DNA of 64,000 nucleotides from Cenarchaeum sp. (GCA_965242695.1 CBDESU010000002.1:768001-832000); one strand, 5' to 3'. Shown: positions 5,526 to 43,288, numbered from the stretch's first letter. The notes: generated by a model not told the origin, from the letters alone. Numbers and translations: made by a program.

Positions 5526-5541
5526 GCGGCCGCCCCCGCCA

Positions 5542-5563: not shown

Positions 5564-5583
5564 GCGCGGACGCAGCCCCCGCC

Positions 5584-7542: not shown

Positions 7543-7557
7543 GCGGCCGGCGGGCAC

Positions 7558-7579
7558 GCGGGCCGGTATAACCATACCG
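7558..7579 (-). promoter_or_regulatory. Conserved TPR-gene promoter element
   Basis: gcgggccggtataaccataccg just upstream of ATG 7542. Confidence 0.7.
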
Positions 7580-7692
7580 CCCCGCCCGCCCGCTGCCGCC
7601 GCGGGGACGCTGCCCCGCCCCGCGCCAGCCGCGGCGGCCGCCCGCCCGCCCGCCCGCCGCTGATCGGCCCCCGCCGCTTCTACCTGCGCCGC

Positions 7693-9732: not shown

Positions 9733-9747
9733 GGAGCCGGCTCGCCC

Positions 9748-9769
9748 GCGGGCCGGTATAACCATACCG
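9748..9769 (-). promoter_or_regulatory. Conserved TPR-gene promoter element
   Basis: gcgggccggtataaccataccg just upstream of ATG 9732. Confidence 0.7.
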
Positions 9770-9927
9770 CCGCGCGCCCGCATGCCTGTGGTAACGGGAG
9801 GGGGGGAGGCGCCCGCGGCAGGTGATCACGGCCCTCCGCCCTCCCATTCCGCCCCGCGGCCGTCACGCGCGGCAGCTCCTGCACAGGCCCTCCGCTCGGC
9901 CCCATGGCATCCGCGGTTCGTCATCGC

Positions 9928-11853: not shown

Positions 11854-11868
11854 GGGATTGGCGCCCCC

Positions 11869-11915
11869 GCGGGCCGGTATAACGATACCGCCGCGCCCCG
11901 GCAATGGTTATACCG
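11869..11915. promoter_or_regulatory. Divergent promoter pair (TPR gene / UDG)
   Basis: gcgggccggtataacgataccg at 11869-11890 and oppositely oriented atggttataccg starting 11904. Confidence 0.65.
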
Positions 11916-16549: not shown

Positions 16550-16948
16550 GGGGGGCGGGCCGCGCAGCCCGATATAAAACGGTGCGTCGCCATTGGCGTG
16601 CCTGAGATCGGCACGTTCCGGCTAGATGGGTCGTTACCCTCGCCAACCCCCTTCTTTCCTGTATGAGTCATGGCAGGGTGCATTGTCGCTTGTGTGGAAA
16701 TATAAGGCGAACTTGATCGGCCTGTCGGCAGAGCTCTGTCGTTTACCCTGGCGAATCTCACGTCTGCGTCAACGTCTTCCTAGGTTCACACTTGGCTTCT
16801 GCGCCGCACCGCTCATTTTACGCCCTCGTATTTCTTAGACTAAAAAACTACTCATGCATTCTAACCCACACACTTCAGGCGATTTGCGCGCAACGGAGGA
16901 GAAGGGGTGCAGATATTGTTCTGCATTGCCGTGCTTGTGACTGGCGTG

Positions 16949-17770
16949 TCAGAGATTCCAGTCATTCACAAGCTCGTCAACGTTCTTTTTGCCCAGAAAA
17001 TAGGACCCGTCCTTTAAGGCGAACCGTACTTGGTACCCTGCTTTATTCTTGGTTATGCTTCCATCTTTAATCCTGTTTTTCATTTCTTTGTTAGAAATAG
17101 TGATATATTTGATAACGTTGTTGCGATTACGAAGGACAAAGATATAGTACACATTTGGGCCGCTTGCTCTTTCGAACGCCTCTGGTCTAATTGTAATGAC
17201 GAAAGTTTTACCATCTTTACCTTCAGTCACAGTCTTAACTTGGATTTCGTACACATTCTTGCCCTTGGTGGCTCTTATGTCGATACCGCTATCGATTGTA
17301 ATGCGATCTGCGTTGTAGCCGCGCAGTAGCAGCTCGCTCATCACCCTGAACTCGCCGGCAGCGCCGATCCTCCTCTGATGATCTTTCCCGCCCGACTTGC
17401 CGATCTCTTCGCTGTCTTGGCCCCCGCCTGGCTTGATCGCTCCCATTGTCTGCCCGTCGCGATCATCCGGCGTCTTGTCGGTAGATGGTACGGTGTGCTC
17501 TCCTGCTCCCGTCCCACCGCCTTGGTCGTCGTTGCCCGACAGGGGCGCGTCCACGCCGCTCAGCTTGAACAATCCGGGTCCATCCTTGGCGAACCTTGAG
17601 CGCCCGCGTGCTATGTCGGTGTACAGCATGGCTCCCATGGTCGTCGCTGGAGTATCGCCCTTGGTCGTGATCCTACATGTCTCCGACGCCCTCTCGAGTA
17701 TCTCGGCAGCAGTGAGGGACTTGCCGGCCTCCTGTAGAACTGCATAAGCGGCATCACGATACTTCGACAC
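16949..17770 (-). CDS. HARE-HTH domain + PD-(D/E)XK endonuclease
   Basis: N-term AAYAVLQEAGKSLTAAEIL...GDTPATTMGAMLYTDI...FKL (HARE-HTH); C-term GAAGEFRVMSELLLRG...GIDI...EIQVKT; GTG start 17770 fits the TATA at ~17795. Confidence 0.8.
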   Translation of the reverse strand: MSKYRDAAYAVLQEAGKSLTAAEILERASETCRITTKGDTPATTMGAMLYTDIARGRSRFAKDGPGLFKLSGVDAPLSGNDDQGGGTGAGEHTVPSTDKTPDDRDGQTMGAIKPGGGQDSEEIGKSGGKDHQRRIGAAGEFRVMSELLLRGYNADRITIDSGIDIRATKGKNVYEIQVKTVTEGKDGKTFVITIRPEAFERASGPNVYYIFVLRNRNNVIKYITISNKEMKNRIKDGSITKNKAGYQVRFALKDGSYFLGKKNVDELVNDWNL

Positions 17771-23130: not shown

Positions 23131-23670
23131 CTACGGGATCGGCGAGGCGATGATCCCCGCCTCTGGCATGTTCACTAGCGTGTACGACACTATCCACATG
23201 AACAGGTACAGGAAGATGTAGCTGCCGATCCCCTGCGTGACGAGCTTTTTCCTGTCCGACGAAGGCAGGCGGATGTTCATCATCTTGCCGAATATGGCGG
23301 TGCCGATGAACACGACGATCATGAACCCTATCGAGGCCCACCGCCGCTCCTCGCCGGCGACCGGCTCGAAGATGAACGTTGCGGCTACGCCGGCGACGAC
23401 GGCCACGCCGACGCGCACCCAGAACAGCCTGCTGAGCTTTGCCTTTTGCGTCGGGTCGAGGGTCTCTCCCTGGCCGCCCGCCTTGCCGCCCTTCTTGGGG
23501 CCGGGCGGCGGCTCGGTCGGGGGGGCGCGCGAGGTGGGCCTTGCCGGGGGCGGCGGCGCGCCGTGGGGGTGCTCCTTGCCGCCTCCGTCGCCGCCCGCGG
23601 CCTCTGCCCCCTCTCTTGCCGGGGCCGTGTCCCGCGTCGGCTCCGACCTGCGCCTCTTGTGCTTGGCCAA
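23131..23670 (-). CDS. Membrane protein, 3 C-terminal TM helices
   Basis: Low-complexity N-terminus then hydrophobic helices; probable TTG start 23670 with TTAAA box ~23701. Confidence 0.65.
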   Translation of the reverse strand: MAKHKRRRSEPTRDTAPAREGAEAAGGDGGGKEHPHGAPPPPARPTSRAPPTEPPPGPKKGGKAGGQGETLDPTQKAKLSRLFWVRVGVAVVAGVAATFIFEPVAGEERRWASIGFMIVVFIGTAIFGKMMNIRLPSSDRKKLVTQGIGSYIFLYLFMWIVSYTLVNMPEAGIIASPIP

Positions 23671-24023
23671 GCTGTACGGCGCGCCGGGCCGCCGTGCTTG
23701 TTTAAGTGCTTTGAAGGGGGGCGCGCCGCGCGGCCCTGCGTACCGGCGCGGAAAGGGCCAATGGCGCACCGTGGATTTCACTCCGTTGGCTACGGCAGGG
23801 GCCGACCTTTGCCCAAGAAGGCCAAGAGGGTGGTTAATATACCCACAGAATTGCGGCCCCCCGACATGGCCTGCTTGGCTCGCGCTTGCAGTTTCCACAT
23901 AGGCGATCCCTTATGTACTAGTGGTGGGGCCGCCCGTATGGTTTCCATGACTTACGCTGACCCTCTTGGGCGTCCAAGCACACCGTCCACGGTTTCCACC
24001 CTCGCGCCCACGCCGACTCTAAC

Positions 24024-24037
24024 GGGGGGGGGGGGGG
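24024..24037 (+). repeat. G14 homopolymer upstream of the AT-rich island
   Basis: 14 consecutive G. Confidence 0.9.
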
Positions 24038-24160
24038 CAAAAATTGGAGCGTCACTGTTAGCAACATGTTAAACACCCAACACAGCCATACCGACACCAC
24101 TATAGTTACAACCCACAATGTCTGTGTCGTGGCCGAACTTTTCGATCGGGAGTGGTTGCC

Positions 24161-25987
24161 ATGCTTCTGAAGTGGACATTTCCGCCCACGGGTGGGGGTG
24201 TTGCACACGGTTTTAACGATAGTGCACAAGAGCACTTTAGAAATGACGCATGGAAGCATACCATACGAGAGCTAATTCAGAACTCTCTTGATGCTGTTCG
24301 CAACAAGGGCCAGCCAGTTGTTGTTGAGATATCGCTAATTGACGTGCCGTCAATCGAACTAGGTGCACTCGACCTTGCTAAACATGTAAAAGAAGCATTA
24401 AAACGAGCTAAAAAACAGGGCGAGAAACACGGCGAAAAATTCTATACTGATGCATTAAAGATTTTGAAAAGAAAGAAAATTAAAACACTAGCAGTAAAAG
24501 ATGCAAACACCACGGGTCTTATTGATGGAAAATGGAGTGCCCTAGTATTCAGCGAAGGGGCCACTGATAAAGGTGGCATGAGTGCAGCCGGCGGGAGTTT
24601 TGGAATAGGTAAAAGCGCCCCCTATTTAGTGTCTGAACTTAAAACTGTATGTTACTCTACGTACTACGCCCGGCCTGGAAGAGAGGAACGATTTATTGCG
24701 CGCTGCAAGCTAATCGCACACAATGATCCACAGGGACGAGACGGTGAGCTTCAACACATTGGATTCGGTACGAAAGGAAGAGTCCAGCGTAACAAACGCC
24801 CGCACCCCACACGAGGTCAAAACATCTACAGTGACTTTCGACTTGGTGGTATTGGCAGTGGCATATTTATCGCTGGATTTAATCCATTATCAAAAGATTG
24901 GCTAAAGGTTGCCGAAAAATCCATTGCAGAGAGCTTTTTTGAGGCAATACATACAGAAAAGTTAAGCATAAAGTTAGATGGTCAATTAATAACACGCGAT
25001 ACGCTTGATGAAATTTTTGATCAAGATCCAGATAACGATTCGTCGTACTACTACCATGTAATCCGAGGCGATCCCAATGTAAAAACTGAATATATCAAGA
25101 CGGACTTAGGGGAGTTTACTCTAAAGTTCTATATCGGGCAAGATGGAATGCCAAACCGAATTGCTTATGTCAACAGGAGGGGCATGCTAGTTACAGACAC
25201 AAGACAGCGTAATAAAAATCCCTTTCACAAAGCAGTAGGTCGAGGCTGGGCCAAGTACGTGGCAGTTGTCACGGCTTCAAATGATGAAACAGATACAAAA
25301 ATACGTGAAATGGAGCCTCCCAACCACGGTACAATTGAACCCGGCCGCATCATTGATCCTGTTAGGCGTGACGAAATGGAAGCAGCACTGGCCAGTATAA
25401 GGGAGAAAATTGCTACGGTAATAGGTGATGCACTGCGGCTTAGCATCCAAGACCAAGAGATTAACGTATCTGAACTCGCAGGGATCATACCAATTGATGG
25501 GGACAACAGTGATGGTAAGGACGAAGAAAGTCAAAACGACGAAGTCGAGCTTAAGGTTCGAAAGCTCAAAGCACCAACACCTGGAGAGAGCTATACTGAG
25601 CAGAAAGGTCCAAGTAAAGGTCGGGGATCAACCGGTAAAAAGCGTGGCAAAAAACGTGAACAGAAAGAAGAACGTACCGGGGCACTTAATAAAATACGTA
25701 TAATGCGCATCGATGACAAGATGCGAGTGGCATTTACACCCACAGCATCTATGGAAGATATTCGCTTTTTGATTAGGCCCGCAGGTGAAGAGCGAATGCG
25801 AGAGCATGCTATTACGATTAGTAAGGCTAGAGCATTACACAGCAACACTTCTGTTCGTGCAGACGGCAAAACCGTGATCGTCTCTCCTCAAAATACAGAT
25901 AGGATAACAATGGATCTTACAGTGGGTAAGGCTAAAGCATACACAGGATATGAAATAGCCTGTGTTTCTCAGGAGGAGCAAAAATGA
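24161..25987 (+). CDS. GHKL (HATPase-like) ATPase, island gene 1
   Basis: IRELIQNSLDA (N-box), KDANTTGL (G1-like), GGSFGIGKSA (G2); later EPPNH motif. Confidence 0.8.
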   Translation: MLLKWTFPPTGGGVAHGFNDSAQEHFRNDAWKHTIRELIQNSLDAVRNKGQPVVVEISLIDVPSIELGALDLAKHVKEALKRAKKQGEKHGEKFYTDALKILKRKKIKTLAVKDANTTGLIDGKWSALVFSEGATDKGGMSAAGGSFGIGKSAPYLVSELKTVCYSTYYARPGREERFIARCKLIAHNDPQGRDGELQHIGFGTKGRVQRNKRPHPTRGQNIYSDFRLGGIGSGIFIAGFNPLSKDWLKVAEKSIAESFFEAIHTEKLSIKLDGQLITRDTLDEIFDQDPDNDSSYYYHVIRGDPNVKTEYIKTDLGEFTLKFYIGQDGMPNRIAYVNRRGMLVTDTRQRNKNPFHKAVGRGWAKYVAVVTASNDETDTKIREMEPPNHGTIEPGRIIDPVRRDEMEAALASIREKIATVIGDALRLSIQDQEINVSELAGIIPIDGDNSDGKDEESQNDEVELKVRKLKAPTPGESYTEQKGPSKGRGSTGKKRGKKREQKEERTGALNKIRIMRIDDKMRVAFTPTASMEDIRFLIRPAGEERMREHAITISKARALHSNTSVRADGKTVIVSPQNTDRITMDLTVGKAKAYTGYEIACVSQEEQK

Positions 25988-26823
25988 CCCGCGATAAGCT
26001 CCTCCTGCCTCATCCGGTGCTACGACCGGGCGGCGGACTGGATTACAACGAAAGCTGCAATTTTGGGCTGGAAATAAAGCCTGGAGCCTCTAGACGTACA
26101 TCGGAAGGGGTCGTAGAAATTAAAGCATCATTCACGCTTGTTAGCCCTACTTTAGAAGAGATGGTAAAGGAGGGCAAGGCTCAGTACCTTGTATTGGCGA
26201 CATGCGCAAAAACATACTATCGACTTGCAACATCTTTTGATGTCCAACAAATATTGCTAGAATTTCCTGTTAAAAATTTGGCTGGTACTCTTCGATTAAC
26301 ACCTTATATTGTAACAACTAAAGAAATAGAGTGGTTTATTGCACCAGAACACGATCCTGAAATAAAAATATTTCAAGGATTTGGCAAGATCCCGCCAGGA
26401 TCAATACTTGCCATAGGTGCCCCGCACGAAATTGAAATGGAACAAATTGGGACTGTTATGTCTGCAATAAAACTGGTTCCAAACGCAAACATTATGGAAG
26501 GGCGTTACACAATAAACGATGAAGGTGATTTTATAATGATTGAACTAAATAATAAAACATACACAGATATTGCACGCATGAGGACCCACATAAAAAATCT
26601 ACTCTACCCTTCTATCTATCAGGCAGCTATTGAGTATGCCCTACGTAAAGCTACTGAAGAAGCAGATAGTAAGTGGGCCAAAGCTTTACAAAAAACGCTA
26701 GAAGAACATGGTCTTAGTAACGATAATATTGAAGAAAAAGCGAATGAATACGCCCAAATAATAATGGGGGACCCGTTAGGGCAAATGCTCGAATGGTGCA
26801 ACAGGAGTGTTTCATTTGACTGA
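25984..26823 (+). CDS. Hypothetical protein, island gene 2
   Basis: 279-aa ORF, N-terminal PHPVL motif, ATGA overlap with gene 1. Confidence 0.8.
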   Translation: MTRDKLLLPHPVLRPGGGLDYNESCNFGLEIKPGASRRTSEGVVEIKASFTLVSPTLEEMVKEGKAQYLVLATCAKTYYRLATSFDVQQILLEFPVKNLAGTLRLTPYIVTTKEIEWFIAPEHDPEIKIFQGFGKIPPGSILAIGAPHEIEMEQIGTVMSAIKLVPNANIMEGRYTINDEGDFIMIELNNKTYTDIARMRTHIKNLLYPSIYQAAIEYALRKATEEADSKWAKALQKTLEEHGLSNDNIEEKANEYAQIIMGDPLGQMLEWCNRSVSFD

Positions 26824-28513
26824 CACCATACGGCTACATAGGCTCACCGGTGATGCATTTGTGAGTTTGCGTAACTATGCGAGCAACCACCCTGATGCTT
26901 ATTGTGACCCTAATGCCGACTTTGGGAAGATTCTTGAATCATGTTGTGATAAAAGCTATTCAAACCCTGTAAACATTACCCTAGATTCTGCCCTGTCCCT
27001 AAAGGAACCACTAGAATATAGTAAAAGCAATGCCAAACGTCATCTTGCAGACAAACAAGCTTTAGATTTCTATAAATCTTTGAAGGGCATGACGCCCAGA
27101 CTGGCCTCTGATCCTTATATTTTAGCCTACATAAACCACTTTTATCTTCATAAATATGGTATCCAGAGATGGCCTATAAGTAAAGAAAAACAGGCGCCAG
27201 CCACTGAGCAAGCGGCACCTACATCGACTAGTGCGCCATTAGGACTGAGCAAGAGAGCATCTCACATTCGGCTACACTGGTTGACCTCTAGTAACCAGCG
27301 TCAACAGATATGGAATGCCAGTATTGCTGGCCGTACATGGTGGATTGCACATGTAGCGATTAAAGCGGCTGATGCTTCAGGAGGGGCCTTTACAGCTAAA
27401 GATGCGTTGGATCTTTTTGCGGAGACGCCCGAGTATTACCACAGAACAATGGAGTATGTAGTTCTCAGGAATCCAGTTCTCCTAGCAGAGTGTGTCCGCG
27501 CACTAATGAATGAAGCTCGTGGGATTAATCGCAGTGGATATAGAGAAATGGGAATGGAACTAAACCGTGAAGCCGGCGCGCGAGTGCTTGATTCACTTAA
27601 CCGAAACGACCTACGAAGGCTTGTTCATCGATCTGCCGATCGTCTTATGCGCATGAAAGACTACGTAAACGATCGCCATCACCTCGTTGGTGTCGACAAG
27701 TTCAATGTACTTAGCCTCGGGGCAGGCGCACAATCGACGGTGCTTGCACTCATGGCAGAGGAGGGGTGGGAAGGCTTAGAAAAACCCGATCTCGCGATAT
27801 TCGCTGATACGCAATGGGAACCACGTGCGGTGTATGATCACCTAAAATGGCTTAAGAGCCAATTGTCCTATGAGGTAGTTACGGTTACGGCCGGTGACAT
27901 AAAAGACAACATGCTTCACGGCGTCAACCCTGATGGTGACAAGTTCCTTGACGTACCGGTATTCTTACGCAATGCGGACGGAACTAAGTCCGTGGCAGCT
28001 AGGCAATGCACCACTCACTACAAAATAATACCCATACACAAAGAAATCCGAAAAAGACTTAAAATCCCTGCTGGCAAGCGTGTTCCTAAAGACGTCCAAG
28101 TCGTGATGTGGTTAGGAATAAGCGCAGACGAGTCAACTAGAATGAAGCCTAGCAGGGATGAATGGATAGACAACCGATACCCGCTAGTTGAGATGAGCAT
28201 GACTCGAGCCGATATATACAAGTGGTTTGGAGATCGCTACCCTGATCGACATCTACCCCGCAGTGCTTGCGTGGGTTGCCCGTACCACGACGATATGGAG
28301 TGGAAATGGATCAAGGACAACGAACCCGAGTCATTCAAGGATGCTGTGAACATTGATTGGTCTTTGCGCAATGTGCCTGCCGCACGTGGTTCACTACGCG
28401 GGGAGGCATACCTACACAAGTCGAGAATGCCGCTAAGTGACATTGACTTTTCGCAAACTCGTGACTATGATGACTACATGGCAACTGAATGTGAGGGGTT
28501 GTGCGGTGTCTAA
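26807..28513 (+). CDS. DUF6339-like N-terminus fused to PAPS-reductase-like (PP-loop, Cys-rich) domain, island gene 3
   Basis: N-half HFYLHKYGIQRWP...IAGRTWWIAH; C-half VLSLGAGAQST, IFADTQWE, RQCTTHYKIIP, WLGISADE, YPLVE, SACVGCPYH, terminal ECEGLCGV. Confidence 0.75.
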   Translation: MFHLTDTIRLHRLTGDAFVSLRNYASNHPDAYCDPNADFGKILESCCDKSYSNPVNITLDSALSLKEPLEYSKSNAKRHLADKQALDFYKSLKGMTPRLASDPYILAYINHFYLHKYGIQRWPISKEKQAPATEQAAPTSTSAPLGLSKRASHIRLHWLTSSNQRQQIWNASIAGRTWWIAHVAIKAADASGGAFTAKDALDLFAETPEYYHRTMEYVVLRNPVLLAECVRALMNEARGINRSGYREMGMELNREAGARVLDSLNRNDLRRLVHRSADRLMRMKDYVNDRHHLVGVDKFNVLSLGAGAQSTVLALMAEEGWEGLEKPDLAIFADTQWEPRAVYDHLKWLKSQLSYEVVTVTAGDIKDNMLHGVNPDGDKFLDVPVFLRNADGTKSVAARQCTTHYKIIPIHKEIRKRLKIPAGKRVPKDVQVVMWLGISADESTRMKPSRDEWIDNRYPLVEMSMTRADIYKWFGDRYPDRHLPRSACVGCPYHDDMEWKWIKDNEPESFKDAVNIDWSLRNVPAARGSLRGEAYLHKSRMPLSDIDFSQTRDYDDYMATECEGLCGV

Positions 28514-28847
28514 TCTGACAAATTTTCTCACGAGAGATTTTATGTCGTTTGGCCATGGTTGCCACGAGGTGATTGATCCTGGGCCGGGATTGTATGCAAT
28601 GTGGTTGCGCGGCCAGTGCATATACGTGGGAATGAGCGAGGATCTTCACAGACGCATTTTTCAGCATGTGGCCTCCGAGGACAACCAGGATCTTGCCAAT
28701 TATTACCGACAATTTCCTGGCGAGATTCGAATAGCTATCGTGCACGTGGATGCCAAAGCAGATCAACTCCGTCGACTTGAGTCTGAGGCCATTGAAAAAC
28801 TCCGACCTATCGTTAACAAGCGTGGTGGAGGTGGCACACGGCAATGA
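28506..28847 (+). CDS. Stand-alone GIY-YIG nuclease, island gene 4
   Basis: PGLYAMW...IYVGMSEDLHRRIFQH...LESEAI...PIVN; GTG 28506 overlaps the gene 3 stop. Confidence 0.8.
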   Translation: MSNLTNFLTRDFMSFGHGCHEVIDPGPGLYAMWLRGQCIYVGMSEDLHRRIFQHVASEDNQDLANYYRQFPGEIRIAIVHVDAKADQLRRLESEAIEKLRPIVNKRGGGGTRQ

Positions 28848-30154
28848 CCAGCTGTCATCCTGCACTTCGAGGAAAATTCGGGAAAACAGAATATTTTTTG
28901 ACCGTTATGCCGGTAGGCGATCTGGTAAACCGCGTGAAATTTCCTGTTGAGATGCCGGAATGGAAAGAGTATACTATCGAAGAACGCTACCAGCGTAGCC
29001 TTAATATGAAACGCATTATAGAAGAAATGGCCCCGTACTTTGCTCAAGACGATAACCGGTTCACGGGTTCGTTAGTCTTGGCCGTCCAAAATGATGAAAA
29101 CATGGAGTTTGAGCACCTGTCTAAGCTAACGGGAGACTTGGGCGCACTTCCTACCATGTACAAGAGTGCTTCGTCCGAAATGGGGTTTGTTGTCATGTCT
29201 GGGCAAGAAGTACTAGTTCCACTAGATGGGCAGCACCGTGCCAAGGCGTTCAAGATGGCTATTGAAGGCCACGCCCGAAACGATCGTGAACCTCCCGTGA
29301 TACTACCCAACGTAAGTTTTGCTCGCGATATGGTGGCGGTAATACTTGTGCGTTTTGACAAAAAGCTATCACGATACATATTTAACAAGATTAATCGCTA
29401 TGCTAAACCAACCGTCAAGGGGGACAAACTAATCACCGATGACGATGACGCAGTTGCAGTCATGACTCGGGCTCTGATAAGAGACGGTGTGATCCCTGCT
29501 AGGCTAGTCAAGGTTAGCGGTAATACACTCAACCTACGTGCGATCGAATTTACAACACTATCTACTTTCTACGAAGCGAATAAAAAACTCGTCTCAGCAT
29601 TGCCGATTCCTCTTGCGGACAAGCCAGAAAAAATGAATTTAGGTGAACGAGAAAAACGCCTTAAGGAGCTTCAAATTGAGTGGAGGCGTCTATTGTCTGG
29701 TGTCACAGAATGGAAAAGAGCACTTACCGCCTCTGATCAAGGTGGAGACGCGACGCGGATCAAGTTGCGTGAAATTTCCTTGCTTGCCAGGCCCGTTGGG
29801 CAGGCAGCCTTAATTAATGGCTATACATTGGCATGTATGAAAGACAGAACTCGTGCAGACAAAGATGAGCTGGTGGCAAGGATCAATAAGATAGATTGGG
29901 GTGTCAAAGCAGAGCTGTGGAAGGGTTTGCTGGTAGGTCCAAATAACAAAATATTCTCTAGCATGCCTGCAGCTAGGAACGCAGGCTTGATGACTGCACA
30001 CATGATCGGTATCGCATTGACCCGTAAGGAAAAGGAACGCGTCATAAAATTTGTCTACGGTAATGCTTCTATGAACCGCAATTTGCCCAAGCCTATAGCA
30101 CTTTCCCGCTACGAACTAGACGAACATAAGCAACAAGCAAGGGATGGTCTATAA
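28844..30154 (+). CDS. DGQHR-domain (DndB-like, ParB superfamily) protein, island gene 5
   Basis: YQRSLN..RI, VPLDGQHRAKA, IFNKINRYAKP; ATGA overlap. Confidence 0.88.
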   Translation: MTSCHPALRGKFGKTEYFLTVMPVGDLVNRVKFPVEMPEWKEYTIEERYQRSLNMKRIIEEMAPYFAQDDNRFTGSLVLAVQNDENMEFEHLSKLTGDLGALPTMYKSASSEMGFVVMSGQEVLVPLDGQHRAKAFKMAIEGHARNDREPPVILPNVSFARDMVAVILVRFDKKLSRYIFNKINRYAKPTVKGDKLITDDDDAVAVMTRALIRDGVIPARLVKVSGNTLNLRAIEFTTLSTFYEANKKLVSALPIPLADKPEKMNLGEREKRLKELQIEWRRLLSGVTEWKRALTASDQGGDATRIKLREISLLARPVGQAALINGYTLACMKDRTRADKDELVARINKIDWGVKAELWKGLLVGPNNKIFSSMPAARNAGLMTAHMIGIALTRKEKERVIKFVYGNASMNRNLPKPIALSRYELDEHKQQARDGL

Positions 30155-30352
30155 GCGCTGATGCCAGACCCTTGCATTGCCGTTGATAGACCCGCGTCAA
30201 TGCCCGACATTTCGTGGGCGGTGATGTTGATCTAAGCAAGGCACGACTGCGACGTTGTGGCCGCATTATGACTAACCTTTTGTAAACCTGAACCCGAGCT
30301 GTCCCACCCTACGCCCCACAACAGTTATTATCGCACGCGCTCCGTGCCGTGC

Positions 30353-32497
30353 ATGAACATAGCAGGCATCGAGCTGCGCTACCTGACATCCTCGCTCAAT
30401 GAGAAGACCATGGGGTACTACGTGAGCAACATCTACGGCGTCTCGCGGCAGAGCCTCCTGCTCAAGCTGCACCACCCGGACAAGCCCGACATCATGCTCA
30501 TGTTCTCGACCATGGGCCTGTGGGAGAGCGCCGTGCGCATAGGCCAGATCGAGCCGAACAGGCTGCTCGCCCGCCTCCGGCGCGACCTTGCCAGGCTGCG
30601 CGTCGAGGCCGTCGAGCAGCCCGGCACCGAGCGCATGGCGTACGTGCGGTTCGGCGGCTTTGGGCGCGAGCGCGTGCTCGCCGGCGAGTTCTTCGGCGAC
30701 GGCAACATAGTGCTGTGCGACGGCGACATGAAGATACTCGCGTTGCTCCACTCGCTCGAGGTGCGGCATCGAAAGCTCGCAGTAGGACTTGAGTACGTGC
30801 CTCCTCCTCCGAACAGCGCCGACGTCCTTGCAATTACGGGCGGGCAGCTCGGCGAGGCGCTTCGGAGCGCGGGAGGCGCCGGCGGCGGCAGCCGCCTGCA
30901 GGCCGACCGCTGGCTCGGGCGCACCCTGGGCCTGCCGGCCAGGTACGTCGGGCGCATGCTAGAGCTTGCCGAAATAGATCCGGCCGCTCCGTGCTCGGGC
31001 CTGTCGGATGCAAGCCTTGACGCCATAGCAGAATCTGTGCGGAAGATTGCCGGCGACGTTGCCGCCGGCCGCCACGATCCGGCCGTCGTCGCGTCAGGCG
31101 GAACAGGAAGCGGCGGCGCAGAGGTGCACCCCGTCGTGCTGTCCGGCAAGCCGGAGGCTGAAGGTAACCTGCGCACCCCTCTCGGCACGTTTGAGGAGGG
31201 CTTGGATCGCCTGTTTACCGAGCAGATACTAGAGGCCGGCAGGGCCGGCCAGTCTAGCGGCTCGGACTCGCGCATCGGCGAGCTGCGCGCGCAGATCAAG
31301 GACCAGACTGACGCGGCGGCAGCCGTCCGGGAAAGGGCGGCGAGGATATCGTCGCTCGCCGGGGCCCTCCAGGCAACGGCCGCATCGGCCCGGTCCCTGT
31401 CCGATCCCGCCGCCGCGGGCATCCTGGCGGGGCACGGCGCCGAGCGGCTCTCCGACAGGGGCGCCCCCGTCGTACAGGTAGCAGGCGTGCGCATTGCGGT
31501 GGATCCCGCCGCATCGCTGCACTCGACCGCATCGCGCCTGTACGACGAGGCCAAGCGCCAGTCGGCTGCGGCCCCGCGCATCGAGGCGCTGCGCAAAAAG
31601 GCCGAGCGGCGGCTGGCCGAGCTGCAGGACCGCTCAGAGGCCGAGCGCCAGTCCGTCACATTCACCGAGGTCCGCAAGAAGGCGTGGTACGAGAGGTACC
31701 GCTGGTTCTTTACGACCGGCGGCCTGCTCGCCGTAGGCGGCCGCGACTCGTCGTCGAACTCGTCGATCATACGCAAGCACCTCGAGCCCGGAGATGCCGT
31801 GTTCCACGCCGAGGTAGGCGGCTCGCCGTTCTTTGTCCTAAAGGGGGCGCTCGCGCGGGGCCGGCCGGCGCAGCCGCAGCAGCAGGGCCGGAGGCACCAC
31901 CGGGAGGAGCAGGCGCGCGACGCGGCGGCCGCCACAACGGCCGCGGCGGCCGCATCGGCGCAGTCTAGCATCGAGGAGGCGGCCCACGCGACGGTCTGCT
32001 TCAGCAGGGCCTGGCGCGAGGCGATGTACGGGCTGAGCGCGTACTGGGTCGAGCCGGAGCAGGTCAAAAAGTCTGCCCCGTCCGGGCAGTTCCTGCCAAA
32101 GGGGTCGTTTACGATAGAGGGCCGGCGCAACTTTGTGCGAGTGCCCGCGCTGCGCCTCGCCGTCGGGATCGCGCCGGCAGGCGACGGGCGGGGCGGGCCG
32201 GCCCTCGCGTGCGGGCCGCCGCAGGCCGTGCGCGAGTTCTGCACGGCGTACGCGGTTGTAGAGCCTGGCCCATCAAGCGCAAGCGATGCGGCCAAGCGCC
32301 TGCGCGGCGAGCTTGCGCGGCTCGACGAGACGGCCGCCACCGCCCTGCCGCTCGACGAGTACGTGAGGGTGCTGCCTGCCGGCAAGACCCGCGTTGCAAG
32401 GGCCGAGCGGGGGCGGGCAGATGCCGCAGCCGTCGATGCTGTCGACGATGCTGCCGCAGATCCGGACGTCGGCAGCGGCAGCGTGCCGCCCGCGTAG
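30353..32497 (+). CDS. rqcH: Ribosome quality-control NEMF/Rqc2 (NFACT) protein
   Basis: EFFGDGNIVL, WYERYRWF, GGRDSSSN, VFHAE, QVKKSAPSGQFLPKGSF. Confidence 0.9.
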   Translation: MNIAGIELRYLTSSLNEKTMGYYVSNIYGVSRQSLLLKLHHPDKPDIMLMFSTMGLWESAVRIGQIEPNRLLARLRRDLARLRVEAVEQPGTERMAYVRFGGFGRERVLAGEFFGDGNIVLCDGDMKILALLHSLEVRHRKLAVGLEYVPPPPNSADVLAITGGQLGEALRSAGGAGGGSRLQADRWLGRTLGLPARYVGRMLELAEIDPAAPCSGLSDASLDAIAESVRKIAGDVAAGRHDPAVVASGGTGSGGAEVHPVVLSGKPEAEGNLRTPLGTFEEGLDRLFTEQILEAGRAGQSSGSDSRIGELRAQIKDQTDAAAAVRERAARISSLAGALQATAASARSLSDPAAAGILAGHGAERLSDRGAPVVQVAGVRIAVDPAASLHSTASRLYDEAKRQSAAAPRIEALRKKAERRLAELQDRSEAERQSVTFTEVRKKAWYERYRWFFTTGGLLAVGGRDSSSNSSIIRKHLEPGDAVFHAEVGGSPFFVLKGALARGRPAQPQQQGRRHHREEQARDAAAATTAAAAASAQSSIEEAAHATVCFSRAWREAMYGLSAYWVEPEQVKKSAPSGQFLPKGSFTIEGRRNFVRVPALRLAVGIAPAGDGRGGPALACGPPQAVREFCTAYAVVEPGPSSASDAAKRLRGELARLDETAATALPLDEYVRVLPAGKTRVARAERGRADAAAVDAVDDAAADPDVGSGSVPPA

Positions 32498-36657: not shown

Positions 36658-38577
36658 ATGCTAGTCGACATCACCCCCGACAAGTCGCTCGTCAAAAAGC
36701 TGGGCCTCTCGGGGTACAGGACCGAGCAGGCCTTGGCCGAGCTGGTCGACAACTCCATTGACGCGCGAATCGATGGCGTCAAAGGTACTATTACGGTACG
36801 GCTGGACTTTGATGATCGCAGCCTCGTCGTCTCGGACGACGGCCACGGGATGAACGGCAAGGAGCTCGCCGGCGCCATGGTCATAGCCAAGAGCGACAAG
36901 GATGGCGGCAAGCTCGGCAGGTTCGGCATTGGCCTGAAGGGGGCCTGCACGGCCCTGGGAGATCGCTTTGAGATAGTCACGTCGCCCGTGGGATCGAAAA
37001 AGTGGTACCGCGCCCGGTACAGCGAGTCCGAGTGGATCAGGGACGAGTCAAAGGGGTGGAAGAACTTTGAGATCAAGACGACGGGGCCCGACCGCGGGCA
37101 GGAGGACTGGCACGGCACGCGCGTGACGGTGGACCTGCTGAATGTCCCGCTCTACCCCAACCAGGTCTCGCGGTTCAGGGAGCGGTTCGGCGTGAGGTAC
37201 TCGCCGTACCTTGAAAGCGGGCAGATCGCGATTCGGGTCAACACGGTAGAGTGCAGGCCGTCCGCCCCCGAGCTCGACGATGCGCACGGCTGGTCCAAAG
37301 TAGACATGGATCTGGAGTTTGGCAACCGAGTCCGCGGCCGGCTCGGACTGCTTCGAAAGAGATCGGTAGGCGGCCAGTACGGCATCCACCTCTTCAAGAA
37401 CGGCAGGTTGATACGGGCGTTTGAAAAGTTCGGCTTTTCGGCGCACCCGGAAAACTCGAGGCTGATAGGCGAGCTGCACCTAGACCACGTCCCGGTCAAC
37501 TTCAACAAGAGCAGGTTCATAGAGGAGAGTCGCGAATACCGCAAAACCTTGGACAGGTTCACAAAGTCCCCCGACCTGCGCCGGCTCCTGTCGTCGTCCC
37601 AGTCCAGGGCCCGGGTCCCCGCGCCGGTGGGCTCGCTCATGGACTACTTTAAGGGAAGCGGCCCCGCGCAGCGGCTGGATCGGCGCGTGCGCCAGTCCGA
37701 GGCGGCAAGGCTGCTAGGCGAGGCGGCCGGAAAGTCGTTCACGATAAGCGCCGACGGCGGCGTTCCCGTCCGGATGCGAGCCGGGCCGGCCGAGGGCAAG
37801 CCGCTGTACACGATTGGCACGGGGAACGGCGCAGTATCCATCGACGTCAATACGGGCAGCCCCCTCTTCGGGCTCGTTGGCAACCCCCTGCTACTGCTGG
37901 GCCTGGCCGCCTCCGAAGCCGAGATGGTGTCTAGGAACCCGAAGAGCGCCGCCGCCCTAGTGGAGCGCAACGCAAGGCTGGAGGGCTTTGTGCGCGAGTG
38001 GACGCCCAAGGCGCCACTGGGCCCGCTGCGCGACAGGGAGGCGCCCGTCCCTCGCACCTACGGCTACGGGCTGTACAGCGACATAATAGAGGTCCACGAC
38101 TATCTAAAGGAGAATCTCCCGATGAAGTTCCAGTTTACCGCCCTGTCGACGCTGCGGCCGTACCTGCACAACGTGCTAGGCAGGGCAGTGTACACCGTGC
38201 ACACGATGCCGGGAAGCGGCGAAGATGCGGCGGGGCTCATCATGGACAGGTTCAGCGACGAGATCGTGGCGGCGGACAGGCCCAGCCGCGAGGTGCTCAG
38301 CGCCATGTTCAACAAGGAGCGGACCCGCACCGTGGTGGCGGTTCGGGAGTACATGAACATCCCGGGCCCGTCCGTGGCCCCGCCCGCCAAGGCCTTTGTC
38401 GATCTGATCATCGAAAAAGACGTCCACAAGTCCCTCATACGCGACGACGAGCCGAGGATGGTGCTGTACAGCTTGTTGCGGCACGAGCTGGTCGACCTGG
38501 ATGAGGTGCGCAGGCAGGCCCGCCGCGTAAAGCAGACGAGGCGGCTTGAGCCTATGATCGAGGCTGGTCCCGCATGA
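36658..38577 (+). CDS. MORC-type GHKL ATPase with C-terminal AbiEi-antitoxin-like domain (copy 1)
   Basis: ALAELVDNSIDA, DDGHGM, LGRFGIGLKGA, HGTRV; C-term ...VAPPAKAFVDL resembles the AbiEi C-terminal EKxLVD. Confidence 0.8.
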   Translation: MLVDITPDKSLVKKLGLSGYRTEQALAELVDNSIDARIDGVKGTITVRLDFDDRSLVVSDDGHGMNGKELAGAMVIAKSDKDGGKLGRFGIGLKGACTALGDRFEIVTSPVGSKKWYRARYSESEWIRDESKGWKNFEIKTTGPDRGQEDWHGTRVTVDLLNVPLYPNQVSRFRERFGVRYSPYLESGQIAIRVNTVECRPSAPELDDAHGWSKVDMDLEFGNRVRGRLGLLRKRSVGGQYGIHLFKNGRLIRAFEKFGFSAHPENSRLIGELHLDHVPVNFNKSRFIEESREYRKTLDRFTKSPDLRRLLSSSQSRARVPAPVGSLMDYFKGSGPAQRLDRRVRQSEAARLLGEAAGKSFTISADGGVPVRMRAGPAEGKPLYTIGTGNGAVSIDVNTGSPLFGLVGNPLLLLGLAASEAEMVSRNPKSAAALVERNARLEGFVREWTPKAPLGPLRDREAPVPRTYGYGLYSDIIEVHDYLKENLPMKFQFTALSTLRPYLHNVLGRAVYTVHTMPGSGEDAAGLIMDRFSDEIVAADRPSREVLSAMFNKERTRTVVAVREYMNIPGPSVAPPAKAFVDLIIEKDVHKSLIRDDEPRMVLYSLLRHELVDLDEVRRQARRVKQTRRLEPMIEAGPA

Positions 38578-39722
38578 GCAGCGCAGCGCATTTTGAAAGG
38601 CATCTAGACCGTGTCGCAATCGAGGCCATAGCTAAAAAGTACGGATTTGCCAGCAAGTCTACCGTTGAAAAATTTCTGATCGACTTTGAGGTTCTCTACC
38701 ACATGCAGAAGGCAATACCGGACTGTGTCGTCCGGGGCGGCATGGCCGTTCCATTTCACCTAGGCCGTGACGACGCCGTCAGGCTTAGTATTGATGTCGA
38801 CGCTGTGACGGGGCTGGATGCCGAAGGCTCGAGCAAGGCCATGTCCGCAGCCTTCGAGAACATGAGATCCACGATCACTCATGTAAAGCCGCACAAGCCC
38901 CGCTCCCCGAAAAAACTCCTTCCGCTCCACACATACTATTGCAAATATGATTCAGTCTTTAGTGACGAAGGTGCGGATATAAAAATTGACTTGTTTTACG
39001 GTGGGCGTCCCGCCGCGCAGACGACCTCCTTTCAACCTCCTACCACGTTGCTGGGAGTCGAGGTCGATTTTGGGGTCACTGCGTACGGCCATTCGCAAAT
39101 GATTGCCGACAAGCTCAGCACGCTGGCGTTCGGCACAATGGGGCTGGACGCTGCGGATCCGGGCGTGCCCAAGCATGTGTACGACATAGCGTCACTGGTC
39201 ATGCACGGCAGGGACAAGATCGAGATGTCCGAGATTCTTGCCTCGTTCGAAATAACTTGCCGCGAAGAGGCCTCCTACACGCAGGGGCGCCCCGCGGCTG
39301 ACGAGGATGTCTGCGACAGCCTGCGGACCTTCTATCGACGCCTACTTGTGGACGGCACCGGCCTGGAGCTCAACAAGTCGTATGCGGGCAGGTTTAGAAC
39401 CTTTGCAACAAACATGCTCGGTCGCGGCAAGTCGAAGAACCGCCTCCACGTCACGGATGTCATGCTCGCCGGCATCCTTGCGGGGATGCTCGCGGATGTT
39501 CGCATGTCCAAGCTGGAGGCAAAAGAGGCGACCTTAACGATCAACCAAATACGGGAAACGCTCAGAAGAATCGATTTGATGTCCGTTGCCAACGGAAACA
39601 AAATGGCAAGGGAACTGCGGCAGGCCTACCCGAAGGACGGCCCTGACTACAACTTGGTGAAGACCATGTGGGCTGATCAGGCGTACCTGTACGGCTTTCT
39701 GCAAGGGCGGGGCCGATCCTGA
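38574..39722 (+). CDS. AbiEii-family nucleotidyltransferase (type IV TA toxin)
   Basis: VEKFLID, VVRGGMAV, RLSIDVD, KIDL, ADKLSTL, KHVYDI; ATGA overlap with upstream gene. Confidence 0.85.
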   Translation: MSSAAHFERHLDRVAIEAIAKKYGFASKSTVEKFLIDFEVLYHMQKAIPDCVVRGGMAVPFHLGRDDAVRLSIDVDAVTGLDAEGSSKAMSAAFENMRSTITHVKPHKPRSPKKLLPLHTYYCKYDSVFSDEGADIKIDLFYGGRPAAQTTSFQPPTTLLGVEVDFGVTAYGHSQMIADKLSTLAFGTMGLDAADPGVPKHVYDIASLVMHGRDKIEMSEILASFEITCREEASYTQGRPAADEDVCDSLRTFYRRLLVDGTGLELNKSYAGRFRTFATNMLGRGKSKNRLHVTDVMLAGILAGMLADVRMSKLEAKEATLTINQIRETLRRIDLMSVANGNKMARELRQAYPKDGPDYNLVKTMWADQAYLYGFLQGRGRS

Positions 39723-39873
39723 GGGATCGATGCGGCCGGCCGCCGTTTGTGCCTTGCAGAGGCACCGCATGCCTTGTCGGCTGCCGCGCGGAACGGCCGA
39801 GGGGCGAAAAGGTAGCAGGACAAGTGCCAACGCTAGGCATGGACCGTGGCTTGACTGTGATGCGGACGGCAGG

Positions 39874-42800
39874 TCATGGGACGCTCCCATGCCTGCCCGC
39901 TTTCCGCATGCGCACCATCTCCCCCAGGTTTTTCACAATGGAGCCTGCCGCCCTCTTGCCCACGCCGAGCGCCGCAAACACCTCGCCGTCGATCTGCGGC
40001 CTGTTTGCGGCCGGGTCGCCGCCGTACCTGCCCCACGCGTCGCCCATCCTCTTGACCGCTGCCTTTGGCATGTCGTCAAAGTCGGGAACCGGCGACTCCC
40101 CGTAGTTGAACACCTCTAGGCTGAGGGCGCCCCCTCCCATCTCCGTGCCGACGGCCTCTAGGTGGTGCTGGTACAGCGACGACGCAAAGTATGCGAGGAA
40201 CGCGCGGGCGTGCCCAGGGTTGTCCGGCGTGAAGTTTGCCAGCGTGTTGGTCGTAAAGAACCTCCCGTCGTTCTCCCACACGTCGAGCGCGTCGTTGACT
40301 ATCCTTCGCAGGATTATGGGGGGCGGGTCGGACAGCCCTAGCGAGTACCAGAACTTCCTGCCCTTCATTGCGGTGCCCTCCGACAGGGGCCTCTCCTCCC
40401 TGTTCTTGCCGCGCGTCGGCCTTTGCGTCTTCTTTTCCCCGTCCAGTATGTACTGGAGAACGCCGCGCCCGTCGGAGCGGCCCCTTAGGTCCCGCTTGGA
40501 CGCGTTGACGTTGAGCAGCCATTCGGTCGCCTTGCCGGAGTCGAGGCGGCCGGCCGGGGTCGACTTTGATACGGTCGGGCACAGGTACCTCTTGTCGATC
40601 CCGTACTCGTCGACGTCCCTCCTGGACAGAACAAAGAACCCCTTGCTGCCCGTGATCTTGCCGTACGTGATCCTTCCCGTCTCGCCGAGCGTCTTGGTCA
40701 GCGCCCGCACGCGGGGAAGGGCGGGCTTGAAGTGGGCGGCCCAGTTGCCCGGCTCGATCCCGCCCTGCCTCATCGACCTTGAAAGCCCAAAATCGCCACC
40801 GGCCAGATCGCTCTTGGCGCGCGCGTAGTTGAGGCGCACGGTGCCCCCGCCCGCCTTCTTTCCCCTGGCCAGCACGACGATGGCGGCCCTTGTGTCGGCA
40901 TCGTCGAAAAACTTGAACGCGGCGCGCGTTATCTCCCTGATCGACGAGTTTTCCAGGAGGGTCCGCTGGAGCGGCTTCCCATACTTTGAGTTCATCCATG
41001 TCTCGCTCGAGATGTACCCGAGCATCCCGCCCTCCCTGAGGTAGCGGAACGCGTGGTAGAAAAAGTAGCCGCTCAGGTCGGTCGTTCCGTCTATCTGGAA
41101 ATCAGCGGGGATGGATAACCCCGAGTGCCTTGGCAGCTGTATTTCGTCCTTGTACGCTATGTCCTGGTGCTTGACGTACGGCGGGTTGCCTATGACTATG
41201 TCGAACCCAAAGTCGGGGCGCCGCCCGGCCGACTCGTCCTGGACCATGCCCGTCCTGGGGAACACTTCCGGAAACTCCCTCTCCCATGCAAAAGTGGCAT
41301 GCTCGCCGTTGGTGCGCGACACGAGGCTGTTGCCGACCCTTATGTTGTCGGCCAGATCGGGGAGCTTTTCGTGTAGGGACGCCGTCAGCAGGAACATGGA
41401 GAGCTTTGTAATCTCGACGGACTGGCGGTTTATGTCGATTCCGTATATGTTGTCCCTGATGACGCTCCTGACCAGCGCGTCGGCAAGGATGGGCTCCAGC
41501 GTCGGGCGGCCCTCCCCGCCGGCTACTCCCTTGCGCGCCTGCACCTCTTCGTGCACCTCGAGCAGCGTGCTGGCCGCCTCGATGAGAAACGCGCCCGAGC
41601 CGCACGCGGGATCCAGTATCCTGATCGAGCGCAACCTGCCTTCCAGCGCGGGCAGGTCGCCGGCGTACTCGTCGACCAGCCCGTCAGGCGTGCTGGCCGC
41701 GCCCGTCCTTGAGAGGTACGGAATTATGGTGTTCCTGCAGATGTACCTCGTCACGTACTCGGGGGTGTAGAAGACGCCCTCTTTCTTGCGCCTGGACGTC
41801 CTCGCGCCGAGCAGCTCTTCTAGGTCTCCTATCGAGTTCTCGAATATGTGCCCGAGCATGTTGACCCTTATCTGGCTCTGAAAGTCGTACGACGACATGG
41901 CGAGCAGGTTCTTTATGATGGGGCTGGTGTCGGCGTGGCGCCTGACGGCCGCCTCCACCGAGCTCTTGAACTCCCACGACCCGCGCCTCGTCCTCGCGCC
42001 GAGCTTCCCGAAGAACCCGGCGCCCCTCCTGTCCCTTACGGACACGGAGTCGGGGATGGGCTCGCTGAAGAGGCCCCCGTTGAACCCGAATATGGCGGGG
42101 TCGTCCGATCCCTTGTTGAACCCCGCAAACAGCTCCCCCGTGATGTAGTTCCACACGCGCGTCGTATTGGTCGTCAGGTTGCCGCGCAGTATGTCGACAA
42201 CCCCGTCCTCGAGCATGGTCCTGCTGCGCACCAGCCCCGCATCCTGCGCAAAGAGGACGAAGATGAGCCTGTTGAGAAAAGTCTGGGCAAATTCCACAGC
42301 ATCGGGCCGGCTTGCCCCCGACGACTCGAACTCCTTGACCAGCATCAGCCTGGTGCGCCCGTATATGCCGTAGAACTCCATGGTGAGCTCCCTTTCTGCC
42401 TCGTCGGCTCTGATCCTAATTTTTTCGGCAAATCCCGCCTCCAGCCTTTCTCTCGAGAAGACGCCGATAAACTCGCGCAGCTTCTCGGGATTGTCCCTTA
42501 CGTCCTCAAAGTCGAACTCGTGGCACTTGCGGTATCCGTGGTCGCGCATGATCAAGACAAAGCGCCTGTAGTTTGTGCAGATGCCGTACCTTGCGCCGGC
42601 CTTTCCCATGTAGTCCCATGTCTGCCTTATTGGCGTCGAGTGCTCCGTCCTTGAGCGCCTCTGTGTTGCGAAGAGGTCGGAAGTCGATGTTCCCTTTGCT
42701 TCGATGCACACGAGGACCTGGTCGCCGTCTACACAGAACTCGAAGTCAACGTTGTCGTGTTCGTGATCCACCTGCATTGCGGGGTAGTCGAGAATCTCCT

Positions 42801-43044: not shown

Positions 43045-43172
43045 GGGCCGCGCAGGGATGCGGACTTTTTAAACAAAATCGTGGCCCGCCTGTTATCTTG
43101 ATCCCGCTTCTAGTGGACGTCTAGTCGTAGCCACCGGCAAGCACCCGCGCCCCCTCGCCACGCGTGGCCGAC

Positions 43173-43195
43173 TATAACATTCTCAAGATGTTATA
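43173..43195. promoter_or_regulatory. 23-bp inverted repeat TATAACA-N9-TGTTATA (extends to CTATAACAT-N7-ATGTTATAG)
   Basis: Between the divergent RM gene and GHKL copy 2. Confidence 0.7.
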
Positions 43196-43288
43196 GCGGG
43201 GCTACCTTACGCCTAGATTTCATAGTCTAAGAGCTTATTTACAGAATTAGCCTTATATTCTAGGATTAAGTTCGCTGTCCCGAGTGGC

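Follow-up and report, generated by a model that had tools for sequence, protein, structure and literature searches.

What does a run of five overlapping, AT-rich genes do between the housekeeping genes of an archaeal chromosome, and do the five belong to one system? The question is raised by a stretch of 64,000 nt from Cenarchaeum sp. (GCA_965242695.1 CBDESU010000002.1:768001-832000; hereafter the window, with positions counted from its first letter), in which five plus-strand open reading frames (ORFs), here g1 to g5, occupy positions 24161-30154 and overlap each other successively by 4, 17, 47 (or 77) and 4 nt. The original prediction had taken these co-oriented, overlapping genes, which the ORF map of the plus strand reproduces, for a single DNA-modification defence operon. 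We find that the five-gene order is real but not indivisible: the operon combines modules that also occur apart, and the PAPS-reductase-fold domain that forms the C-terminal half of g3 (the core) pairs in other genomes with at least five alternative nuclease/NTPase modules. Regarding function, we give about as much belief as doubt to the reading in which the core places a mark on self DNA, probably by inserting sulfur, and the partner modules restrict in a manner resembling restriction-modification (RM). The parts of the operon, three of which correspond to proteins A, B and C of the PADLOC defence candidate PDC-M33, are as follows.

24161 (ATG) or 24152 (GTG) to 25987, plus strand: g1, PDC-M33A-type protein with a plausible GHKL-like ATPase N-terminal region (about residues 36-160) and a variable C-terminus
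25984-26823, plus strand: g2, PDC-M33B-type protein, predicted Ig/FN3-like beta-sandwich with C-terminal helices
26807-28513, plus strand: g3, two-domain fusion of 568 amino acids (aa)
26807-27676, plus strand: N-terminal half of g3, DUF6339 (PDC-M33C) domain, mostly alpha-helical, about residues 1-290
27677-28513, plus strand: C-terminal half of g3, PP-loop, Cys-rich core with PAPS-reductase fold, putative DNA-modifying (sulfur-inserting) enzyme
28467 (ATG) or 28437 (GTG) to 28847, plus strand: g4, GIY-YIG nuclease, stand-alone and small (126 aa counted from the ATG, a start that leaves 47 nt shared with g3)
28844-30154, plus strand: g5, DGQHR-domain protein (DndB-like, ParB/Srx-type)

A composite operon of separable modules

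Relatives of the g3 fusion numbered 608 at E <= 1e-3 among the scored candidates, and the best 120 were all near full length. A scan of 185,579 species genomes yielded 570 relatives, and the best 80 loci were analysed by mapping the five proteins and clustering the neighbouring ORFs. The following architectures were found.

DUF6339-core fusion with g1 and g2 directly upstream: 36 of 80 loci, 34 intact and 2 frame-broken
Stand-alone core with superfamily 2 (SF2) helicase, HATPase_c_3 ATPase and PLD nuclease: 24 of 80 loci, some cut by contig ends
Stand-alone core with GIY-YIG and DGQHR genes, among housekeeping genes and without PDC-M33: 12 of 80 loci
g1-g2, separate DUF6339 and separate core: 3 of 80 loci
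Staphylococcal-nuclease-like (SNase) gene, core and ParB_N protein: 3 of 80 loci
Core without recognised partner: 2 of 80 loci

The full five-gene order was confined to four of these loci (L001-L004, all fusion loci and all from Thaumarchaeota); with the cassette of the same-genus genome G002 described below, the co-occurrence expected of the five genes is thus present. The trio of helicase, ATPase and PLD nuclease also follows four of the fusion loci, and fusion loci often continue with GmrSD/SspE-like genes (cluster c27 in 4 loci, c22 in 7) or with c44 and a DGQHR gene (4 loci), while PbeA/PbeC-like genes lie within the flanks of five. A GIY-YIG gene was always accompanied by a DGQHR gene (17/17). 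When the window is included, a GHKL-type ATPase was encoded within 6 kb in 63 of 81 loci and a ParB/Srx-type partner in 35 of 81; a cysteine desulfurase was found in the flanks taken at none of the 80 loci. Besides the fusion of DUF6339 with the core, natural fusions join g1 to g2 (P0256) and g2 to DUF6339 (P0160), and since these fusions chain four parts together, they argue for one physical complex in the cassette. In keeping with this, g1 and g2 lie upstream of all 35 intact fusions.

Two of the other architectures have features of their own. In the commonest arrangement of the stand-alone core (L049-L080, for example L052:7968-12784), the SF2 helicase is weakly PbeA-like, the HATPase_c_3 protein MzaB-like and the PLD nuclease DrmC-like; this arrangement matched no named PADLOC system, occurs in sponge-type Chloroflexota and other metagenome-assembled genomes (MAGs) and looks like an undescribed four-gene system. 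The SNase-type variant (L070, L075 and L077) stems from alphaproteobacterial MAGs and consists of the nuclease-like gene, the core and a gene for a 686-aa protein with a ParB_N domain.

The PAPS-reductase-fold core

The core adopts the PP-loop ATP-pyrophosphatase fold of the PAPS reductase/adenine-nucleotide alpha-hydrolase superfamily. Its best structural matches are PAPS/APS-reductase and [4Fe-4S] sulfur-transferase folds, and its structural neighbours include the base- or nucleotide-thiolating enzymes NcsA, TtuA and YcfA (9kq6/9kq7). By sequence it belongs to phrog_424, a family of phage "PAPS reductases" (E 4.4e-43, 148.9 bits, residues 227-568), and together with the Pfam DUF6339 match of the N-terminal half (E 3e-17) this upholds the DUF6339/PAPS-reductase fusion that had been read in the third gene. 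Five cysteines, C401, C488, C491, C562 and C566, are kept in 81 of 81 core sequences from all architectures, and the PP-loop-like motif S303-L-G-x-G-x-Q-S310 is essentially invariant (S303 in 79/81). The last two cysteines lie within the final 11 residues of g3, for which the predicted local distance difference test (pLDDT) of the structural model is below 50; we take this Cys tail to be reminiscent of the flexible ECGLH tail of PAPS reductases.

In the precomputed table, PF01507 was annotated in just one of the 120 listed g3 homologues. PADLOC SspD was matched weakly (4.6e-15, 54 bits; residues 301-518 against positions 3-200 of the 277 in the model), the PADLOC SspB and SspC models matched none of the five cassette proteins, and neither did any Brx model at E <= 0.1. 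When the PDB was searched by sequence, nothing matched the g3 profile or g1 and the hits of g5 were at noise level, and there was no Tdp entry among the top 50 structural matches of g3, a result that does not exclude kinship with TdpC.

Orphan cores on phages and plasmids

IMG/VR contained at least 563 relatives. In the best 80 viral loci examined, the core was carried by 80 of 80 contigs, and none of these encoded g1, g2, DUF6339, GIY-YIG, DGQHR or the c6 ATPase. Likewise, matches restricted to the core (g3 residues ~298-568) came from 53 records of phages and 196 of plasmids, 110 of the latter from Agrobacterium, and proteins of Pelagibacter, Geobacillus, Salisaeta and Thermus phages share 36-43% identity with the core. 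On the conjugative Agrobacterium plasmid pAt (CP048491; L111, locus 6021-7813), an orphan core directly follows a DUF1738 (ArdC-type) gene, with which it overlaps; our literature search found no paper joining PAPS reductase with ArdC on plasmids. The phage and plasmid copies of phrog_424 are stand-alone orphans, whereas the core of the window is fused to DUF6339 inside a nuclease-bearing chromosomal cassette. A passage of PMC13551039, citing Piel et al. 2022, proposes that phage PAPS reductases modify DNA to evade defence.

As a side observation, a coding sequence of the Mesorhizobium phage-plasmid AP023261 (L112, locus 6542-7861) that is annotated as "DNA cytosine methyltransferase" contains the core in its residues 165-439, and its label looks either wrong or as if it hides an N-terminal fusion.

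The PDC-M33 proteins

The PADLOC models PDC-M33 A, B and C were all matched in the window, by adjacent and co-oriented genes in the order g1, g2 and N-terminal half of g3 (E 4e-84, 3.7e-29 and 1.2e-16, respectively). The family of g1 keeps the motifs E-x-I-Q-N-S-L-D-A, D-x-G-T-T-G-L and G-G-S-F-G-I-G-K, which align with the N-box, G1 and G2 of a HATPase_c_3 family in a weak match (hhalign E 9e-4, probability 23%). We found no Pfam or NCBIfam match for g1 itself, no Pfam HATPase match in any of 23 family members, of which one had a weak Sacsin-domain match (0.016), and only clusters of "hypothetical proteins" in the protein atlas. Because of the low hhalign probability and the lack of a Pfam HATPase match, we regard a GHKL-like ATPase, the original call, as plausible and not proven.

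The AlphaFold2 model of g2 (pLDDT 87.6) is an Ig/FN3-like beta-sandwich followed by helices. Foldseek returned nothing for it at E <= 1e-3, a wider structure search returned only generic Ig/FN3 sandwiches, and no acidic or His residue is conserved in the family alignment. The family is large, with 2,979 representative clusters in an exhaustive profile search (2,247 at E <= 1e-10), nearly all of 270-290 aa. Judged by the model, g2 is probably a non-catalytic adaptor. A diverged PLD nuclease had also been considered, since in helicase-type loci the gene next after GHKL encodes a PLD protein, and was ruled out by the different fold and the missing HxK motif.

Across divergent and stand-alone forms of DUF6339, only D102, R121-W122, R176, W179, Y211-H212 and G257 are invariant, and the protein atlas gave no usable match. 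The PDC-M33C model has a length of 247-250, corresponding to a stand-alone DUF6339, which in the window is instead the N-terminal half of the 568-aa fusion. The same trio occurs in defence islands on plasmids of Ligilactobacillus, Lactococcus, Paenarthrobacter and Deinococcus, set among RM and Abi genes. There, unlike in the window, protein C is stand-alone (about 265-273 aa), and PAPS-like core, GIY-YIG and DGQHR are absent from 4/4 loci; PDC-M33 is an autonomous three-gene unit on these plasmids of cultured bacteria. It is a computational PADLOC candidate only and unvalidated, and no paper naming PDC-M33 or DUF6339 was found in our literature search.

The GIY-YIG nuclease and the DGQHR protein

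The domain calls made for the last two genes were both supported. The g4 protein exceeds the Pfam GIY-YIG cut-off (26.9 against 22.6 bits) and has no other domain, and its catalytic set G41-x-Y43, Y53-V-G55, R63, H67, N73, E105 and N117 is invariant in 16/16 relatives, so that it is, as far as the residues tell, a catalytically intact GIY-YIG nuclease. The g5 protein matches Pfam DndB (1.5e-32) and TIGR03187 DGQHR (95.1 bits, cut-off 58.85), with the motif D128-G-Q-H-R132 invariant in 16/16; since it scores 70.9 bits against TIGR03233 dndB, far under the cut-off of 328, it is a member of the DGQHR family and not DndB proper. A predicted complex of g4 and g5 scored 0.18, which is under the mark and speaks neither for nor against binding.

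Throughout the family, g4 begins within the 3' end of g3, in a different reading frame (28467-28513 in the window and the equivalent positions in L001-L056). The apparent conservation of "NxRxCAVS" at the N-terminus of g4 arises because the invariant ECEGLCGV tail of g3 is read there in another frame. The arrangement of the overlap looks like translational coupling.

Relation to known phosphorothioation and restriction systems

In Dnd (DndABCDE-FGH/Pbe), Ssp (SspABCD-E/FGH), BREX type 4 (BrxPCZL) and Tdp (TdpABC), a PAPS-reductase-family enzyme is the central modifier, to which the core may be likened. According to a section of PMC12914056, phosphorothioate (PT) synthesis takes a PAPS-domain protein, an NTPase and a desulfurase, the last possibly in trans; brxP and brxC suffice, tdpC alone is enough for synthesis by tdpABC, and one locus with PAPS reductase and ATPase and without dndD gave no PT. 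A sulfur source acting in trans is a likeness compatible with the cassette, for which the host genome offers nine Aminotran_5 matches. Further points of likeness are the DGQHR protein of DndB type that occurs in Dnd, and the SspE-like (DUF262/GmrSD) and PbeA/PbeC-like genes that adjoin the core in related loci.

The core differs from these enzymes. It is not DndC, as it does not match TIGR03183, and its fusion partner is DUF6339 and not DUF4007, the domain fused to the PAPS-reductase domain in BrxP (as described in parts of PMC12914056 and PMC12839542). In comparison with Dnd, Ssp and Brx, the GHKL-like ATPase, the beta-sandwich protein and DUF6339 stand in place of the P-loop ATPase (DndD, SspC or BrxC) and of DndE or SspB. 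The genes g5 and g4 occupy the position downstream of the core that is held elsewhere by fused proteins of the SspE/GmrSD type, in which a ParB-like DUF262 NTPase is combined with a DUF1524 nuclease; however, g4 and g5 are separate polypeptides and the nuclease is GIY-YIG and not HNH-type. Rakesh et al. 2024 (PMC10853773) is centred on DndD-DndE, and a term search of it found no GHKL, MORC, HATPase or "PAPS reductase". No description of the five-gene architecture was found in the literature and no described system matches it fully, in agreement with the original prediction of a layout apart from canonical Dnd, Ssp and Pbe; "undescribed" thus holds for the full architecture but not for g1, g2 and the DUF6339 half, which are catalogued as PDC-M33 A, B and C.

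The prediction had also stated that genes for DndD/DndE, SspB/C, cysteine desulfurase and methyltransferase are missing, which is true of the block. Outside it, a type IIG RM-methylase is encoded about 10 kb downstream, and the other contig of the host carries two canonical dndC-dndD-desulfurase clusters and further DndD/PbeC-like genes. The Dnd-related loci considered here (L094-L107) lie at ~1474109-1502123 and 1608354-1617333 of contig C1 of the host genome G000, and one of the two canonical clusters has dndD in two pieces. In the whole host genome DndC (TIGR03183) is matched only twice, each time on contig C1 and outside the window, and among 49 core-bearing genomes it was over the cut-off in 2 and matched at all at E <= 0.001 in 5. 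The core is independent of Dnd. About 110 kb beyond the host's Dnd genes, a possible Ssp-type cluster consists of a desulfurase gene, an ORF with weak PAPS-like similarity and a DndD-like gene.

A possible modification and restriction logic

We read the core as the modification (M) part because it pairs with unrelated nuclease/NTPase modules, is sometimes fused to one of them and also travels alone on phages and plasmids, a behaviour familiar from DNA methyltransferase genes. Its fold, its PP-loop, its pattern of 3 + 2 cysteines and its PT-associated neighbours point to ATP-dependent insertion of sulfur into DNA. On this reading the cassette would be assembled from three modules, namely the PDC-M33 trio, the PP-loop Fe-S-type core, and GIY-YIG with DGQHR. 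The core, with ATP used through the PP-loop, a [4Fe-4S]-type site of three cysteines and a flexible, Cys-bearing C-terminal tail, would install a mark on host DNA, most likely sulfur in a phosphorothioate-like form, and the sulfur would come from housekeeping cysteine desulfurases. The PDC-M33 proteins, tied to the core by fusion, may scan or act on DNA and provide ATP-driven handling or part of the restriction, and the DGQHR protein may direct the GIY-YIG nuclease to invading DNA that lacks the mark, or regulate it, so that the pair would resemble an SspE/GmrSD enzyme split in two. The predicted scheme, in which gene 3 marks and the others restrict, fits all the comparative evidence gathered. 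The analysis itself establishes gene content, folds, conserved motifs, modularity, mobility and the hotspot; that DNA is the substrate, that sulfur is the mark and which module restricts are what we infer from these.

Several observations weigh against this reading, the whole basis of which is comparative (genes, folds and neighbourhoods). The cassette has no P-loop NTPase of DndD/SspC/BrxC type and no DNA-recognition protein of DndE/SspB type, and we detected no nuclease or other catalytic fold in g1, g2 or DUF6339. The core scores 13.5 bits (E 0.075) against Pfam PF01507 PAPS_reduct, under the gathering threshold of 22.5 bits, and matches neither NCBIfam nor DndC, so that its substrate could differ. 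PDC-M33 persists without any PAPS-like domain in 4/4 plasmid loci, so that g1, g2 and DUF6339 must be more than helpers of a modifying enzyme. Finally, since the host has two Dnd clusters, a PT mark made by the cassette would be redundant or set in a different sequence context.

The most serious competitor, which we consider unlikely, is a defence that is independent of modification: the GHKL-like ATPase, g2 and DUF6339 would sense invading DNA, the PP-loop domain would be an effector or regulator, for example by depleting nucleotides through an ATP pyrophosphatase activity or by conjugating a moiety to a partner protein as in the QueC-like Cap9/QatC, and GIY-YIG with DGQHR would be a second effector. 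The autonomy of PDC-M33, the covalent fusion of the core to a PDC-M33 component within a chain of fusions that links all parts, and the lack of a recognisable DNA-recognition subunit all agree with it, but orphan cores, seen in 80/80 viral contigs and on many plasmids, are hard to understand as defence effectors and easy to understand as protective modifiers, and what recurs beside the core are genes for DNA nucleases and for proteins of ParB/Srx type, among them SspE-like and Pbe-like ones with ties to PT systems. Somewhat less probable still is a sub-case of the marking reading in which the RM-like logic is kept and the chemistry is new, the core making a thio-base or another adenylation-dependent substitution in DNA or nucleotides instead of PT. 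That the core is not DndC, resembles SspD weakly and has no DndD/E, SspB/C or BrxC partner would suit such a chemistry, as would its thiolating structural neighbours NcsA, TtuA and YcfA and a host already equipped with Dnd; against it, the characterised DNA-acting enzymes of the PAPS-reductase family listed in a part of PMC12914056 (DndC, SspD, BrxP and TdpC) all make PT, and the neighbouring SspE-like, Pbe-like and DndB-like genes belong to PT-associated families.

The orphan cores in accessory or anti-defence-type regions of phages and plasmids, together with the proposal made in that passage of PMC13551039, would also accord with a selfish or anti-defence element, in which the core shields the DNA of a mobile element from resident restriction and the cassette is an addiction module. 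The cassette is indeed mobile and found at different sites within one genus, but it has no mobility or replication genes, its chromosomal hotspot holds an Hma system in a relative, and a nuclease with an apparently intact catalytic set and PADLOC defence-candidate genes are aboard; we judge this improbable, and as RM systems are both selfish and defensive, it would be compatible with the marking reading. Hardly credible to us is ordinary sulfur metabolism, with g3 as a CysH-type PAPS/APS reductase beside unrelated neighbours. Its nearest solved folds are genuine PAPS/APS reductases and its phage homologues are annotated as such, yet the core stays under the Pfam threshold and has no NCBIfam CysH match, it is obligatorily fused or linked to defence-type genes with overlapping reading frames, no sulfate-assimilation gene is nearby in the window, and hosts unrelated to each other show the same Cys pattern and the same partners.

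If the core does mark DNA, it would be a further family beside dnd, ssp, tdp and brx (as listed in part of PMC12914056), one whose partner is GHKL-like and not of the P-loop kind; PDC-M33 and DUF6339 would become open to functional study for the first time, and many phage "PAPS reductase" genes, usually read as sulfur metabolism, would be anti-restriction DNA modifiers. A bolder version, which is tentative and clearly less probable than the marking reading as such, holds that the phrog_424-type core is a distinct and essentially self-sufficient DNA-marking family, making PT or a new sulfur mark, that plugs into at least five unrelated restriction modules and also serves as an orphan anti-restriction gene. 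The modules on this version, and held as tentatively, would be the PDC-M33 trio; helicase, MORC-like ATPase and PLD; GIY-YIG and DGQHR; SNase and ParB; and a GmrSD-like module. Were it true, many of the viral genes now labelled "cysH/PAPS reductase" and counted as auxiliary metabolic genes would serve to modify DNA, and PDC-M33 would restrict according to the mark, driven by a GHKL-like motor and lacking any classical nuclease fold. The module swaps across the 80 loci are natural experiments by which M and restriction (R) parts could be distinguished.

Insertion site and surroundings

The five genes lie in a low-GC insert with the following borders.

24024-24037, plus strand: poly-G run of 14 G at the left border, read from the sequence
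24038-30343 (about 6.3 kb), no strand: low-GC inserted cassette, delimited by GC profile, GC content at third codon positions (GC3) and empty sites in relatives
23134-23898, minus strand, and 30344-32497: the host gene and the NFACT gene that bound the cassette

The GC content is 0.41-0.51 across 24000-29999 and 0.63-0.74 on either side (500-nt windows), and GC3 is 0.34-0.47 in the four large island genes versus 0.77-0.91 in neighbouring host genes, which bears out the AT-rich block between host core genes that had been noticed at first. The flanks are host genes: cobalamin-type TP_methylases are encoded to one side, NFACT to the other. With a genome of 3.89 Mb in two contigs, in which g3 is present in a single copy, the host is an archaeon; among its genes are those for PriL/PriS primase, NFACT, AcnX, cobalamin methylases and four large TPR proteins.

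We compared the insertion site in 30 relatives by DNA search and by tblastn of both flanking genes. In the same-genus genomes G001, G002 and G003, the flanking genes are 0.3-0.6 kb apart and the site is empty. The same five genes are present at other sites in G002 and in G003, from which locus L001 comes, and the proteins of the G002 cassette are 49-69% identical to those of the window. In G004, whose flanks are 84% identical, the same site holds an insert of about 11.7 kb with a DDE transposase gene and all parts of an Hma system, the latter low in GC.

~2026-12499 of L091 (G004:C2:433500-447800): hotspot insert with DDE transposase, HmaC/DUF499, HmaB DUF1156 methylase and HmaA SNF2 helicase with NOV_C domain

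The empty site in G001-G003 and the Hma system in G004 identify the intergenic site as a defence hotspot, and the cassette is horizontally acquired and mobile. Its borders showed no tRNA gene, integrase or flanking repeats, short repeats being at chance level only, and no mobility or replication genes were found within it.

At the left border, only the residues from about 63/152 to 255 of the 255-aa ORF at 23134-23898 (minus strand) are conserved in relatives; the ORF map probably places its start too far upstream and makes the native intergenic region look smaller than it is. Further downstream of the cassette, at 36658-45226, lies a defence-type cluster in which two genes have a lower GC3 (0.69).

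36658-38574: HATPase_c_3 protein, directly followed at 38574-39719 by an AbiEii-like nucleotidyltransferase
39877-43044, minus strand: type IIG Eco57I/MmeI-like RM-methylase
43289-45226: second HATPase_c_3 protein

On the other side, four consecutive minus-strand genes at 3945-11904 encode the large TPR-repeat proteins (527-696 aa), which are apparently paralogues. Between them and the cassette, a short low-GC patch at 16792-17329 (GC3 ~0.39-0.40) has two small ORFs of 92 and 99 aa without Pfam match and may be another small insert.

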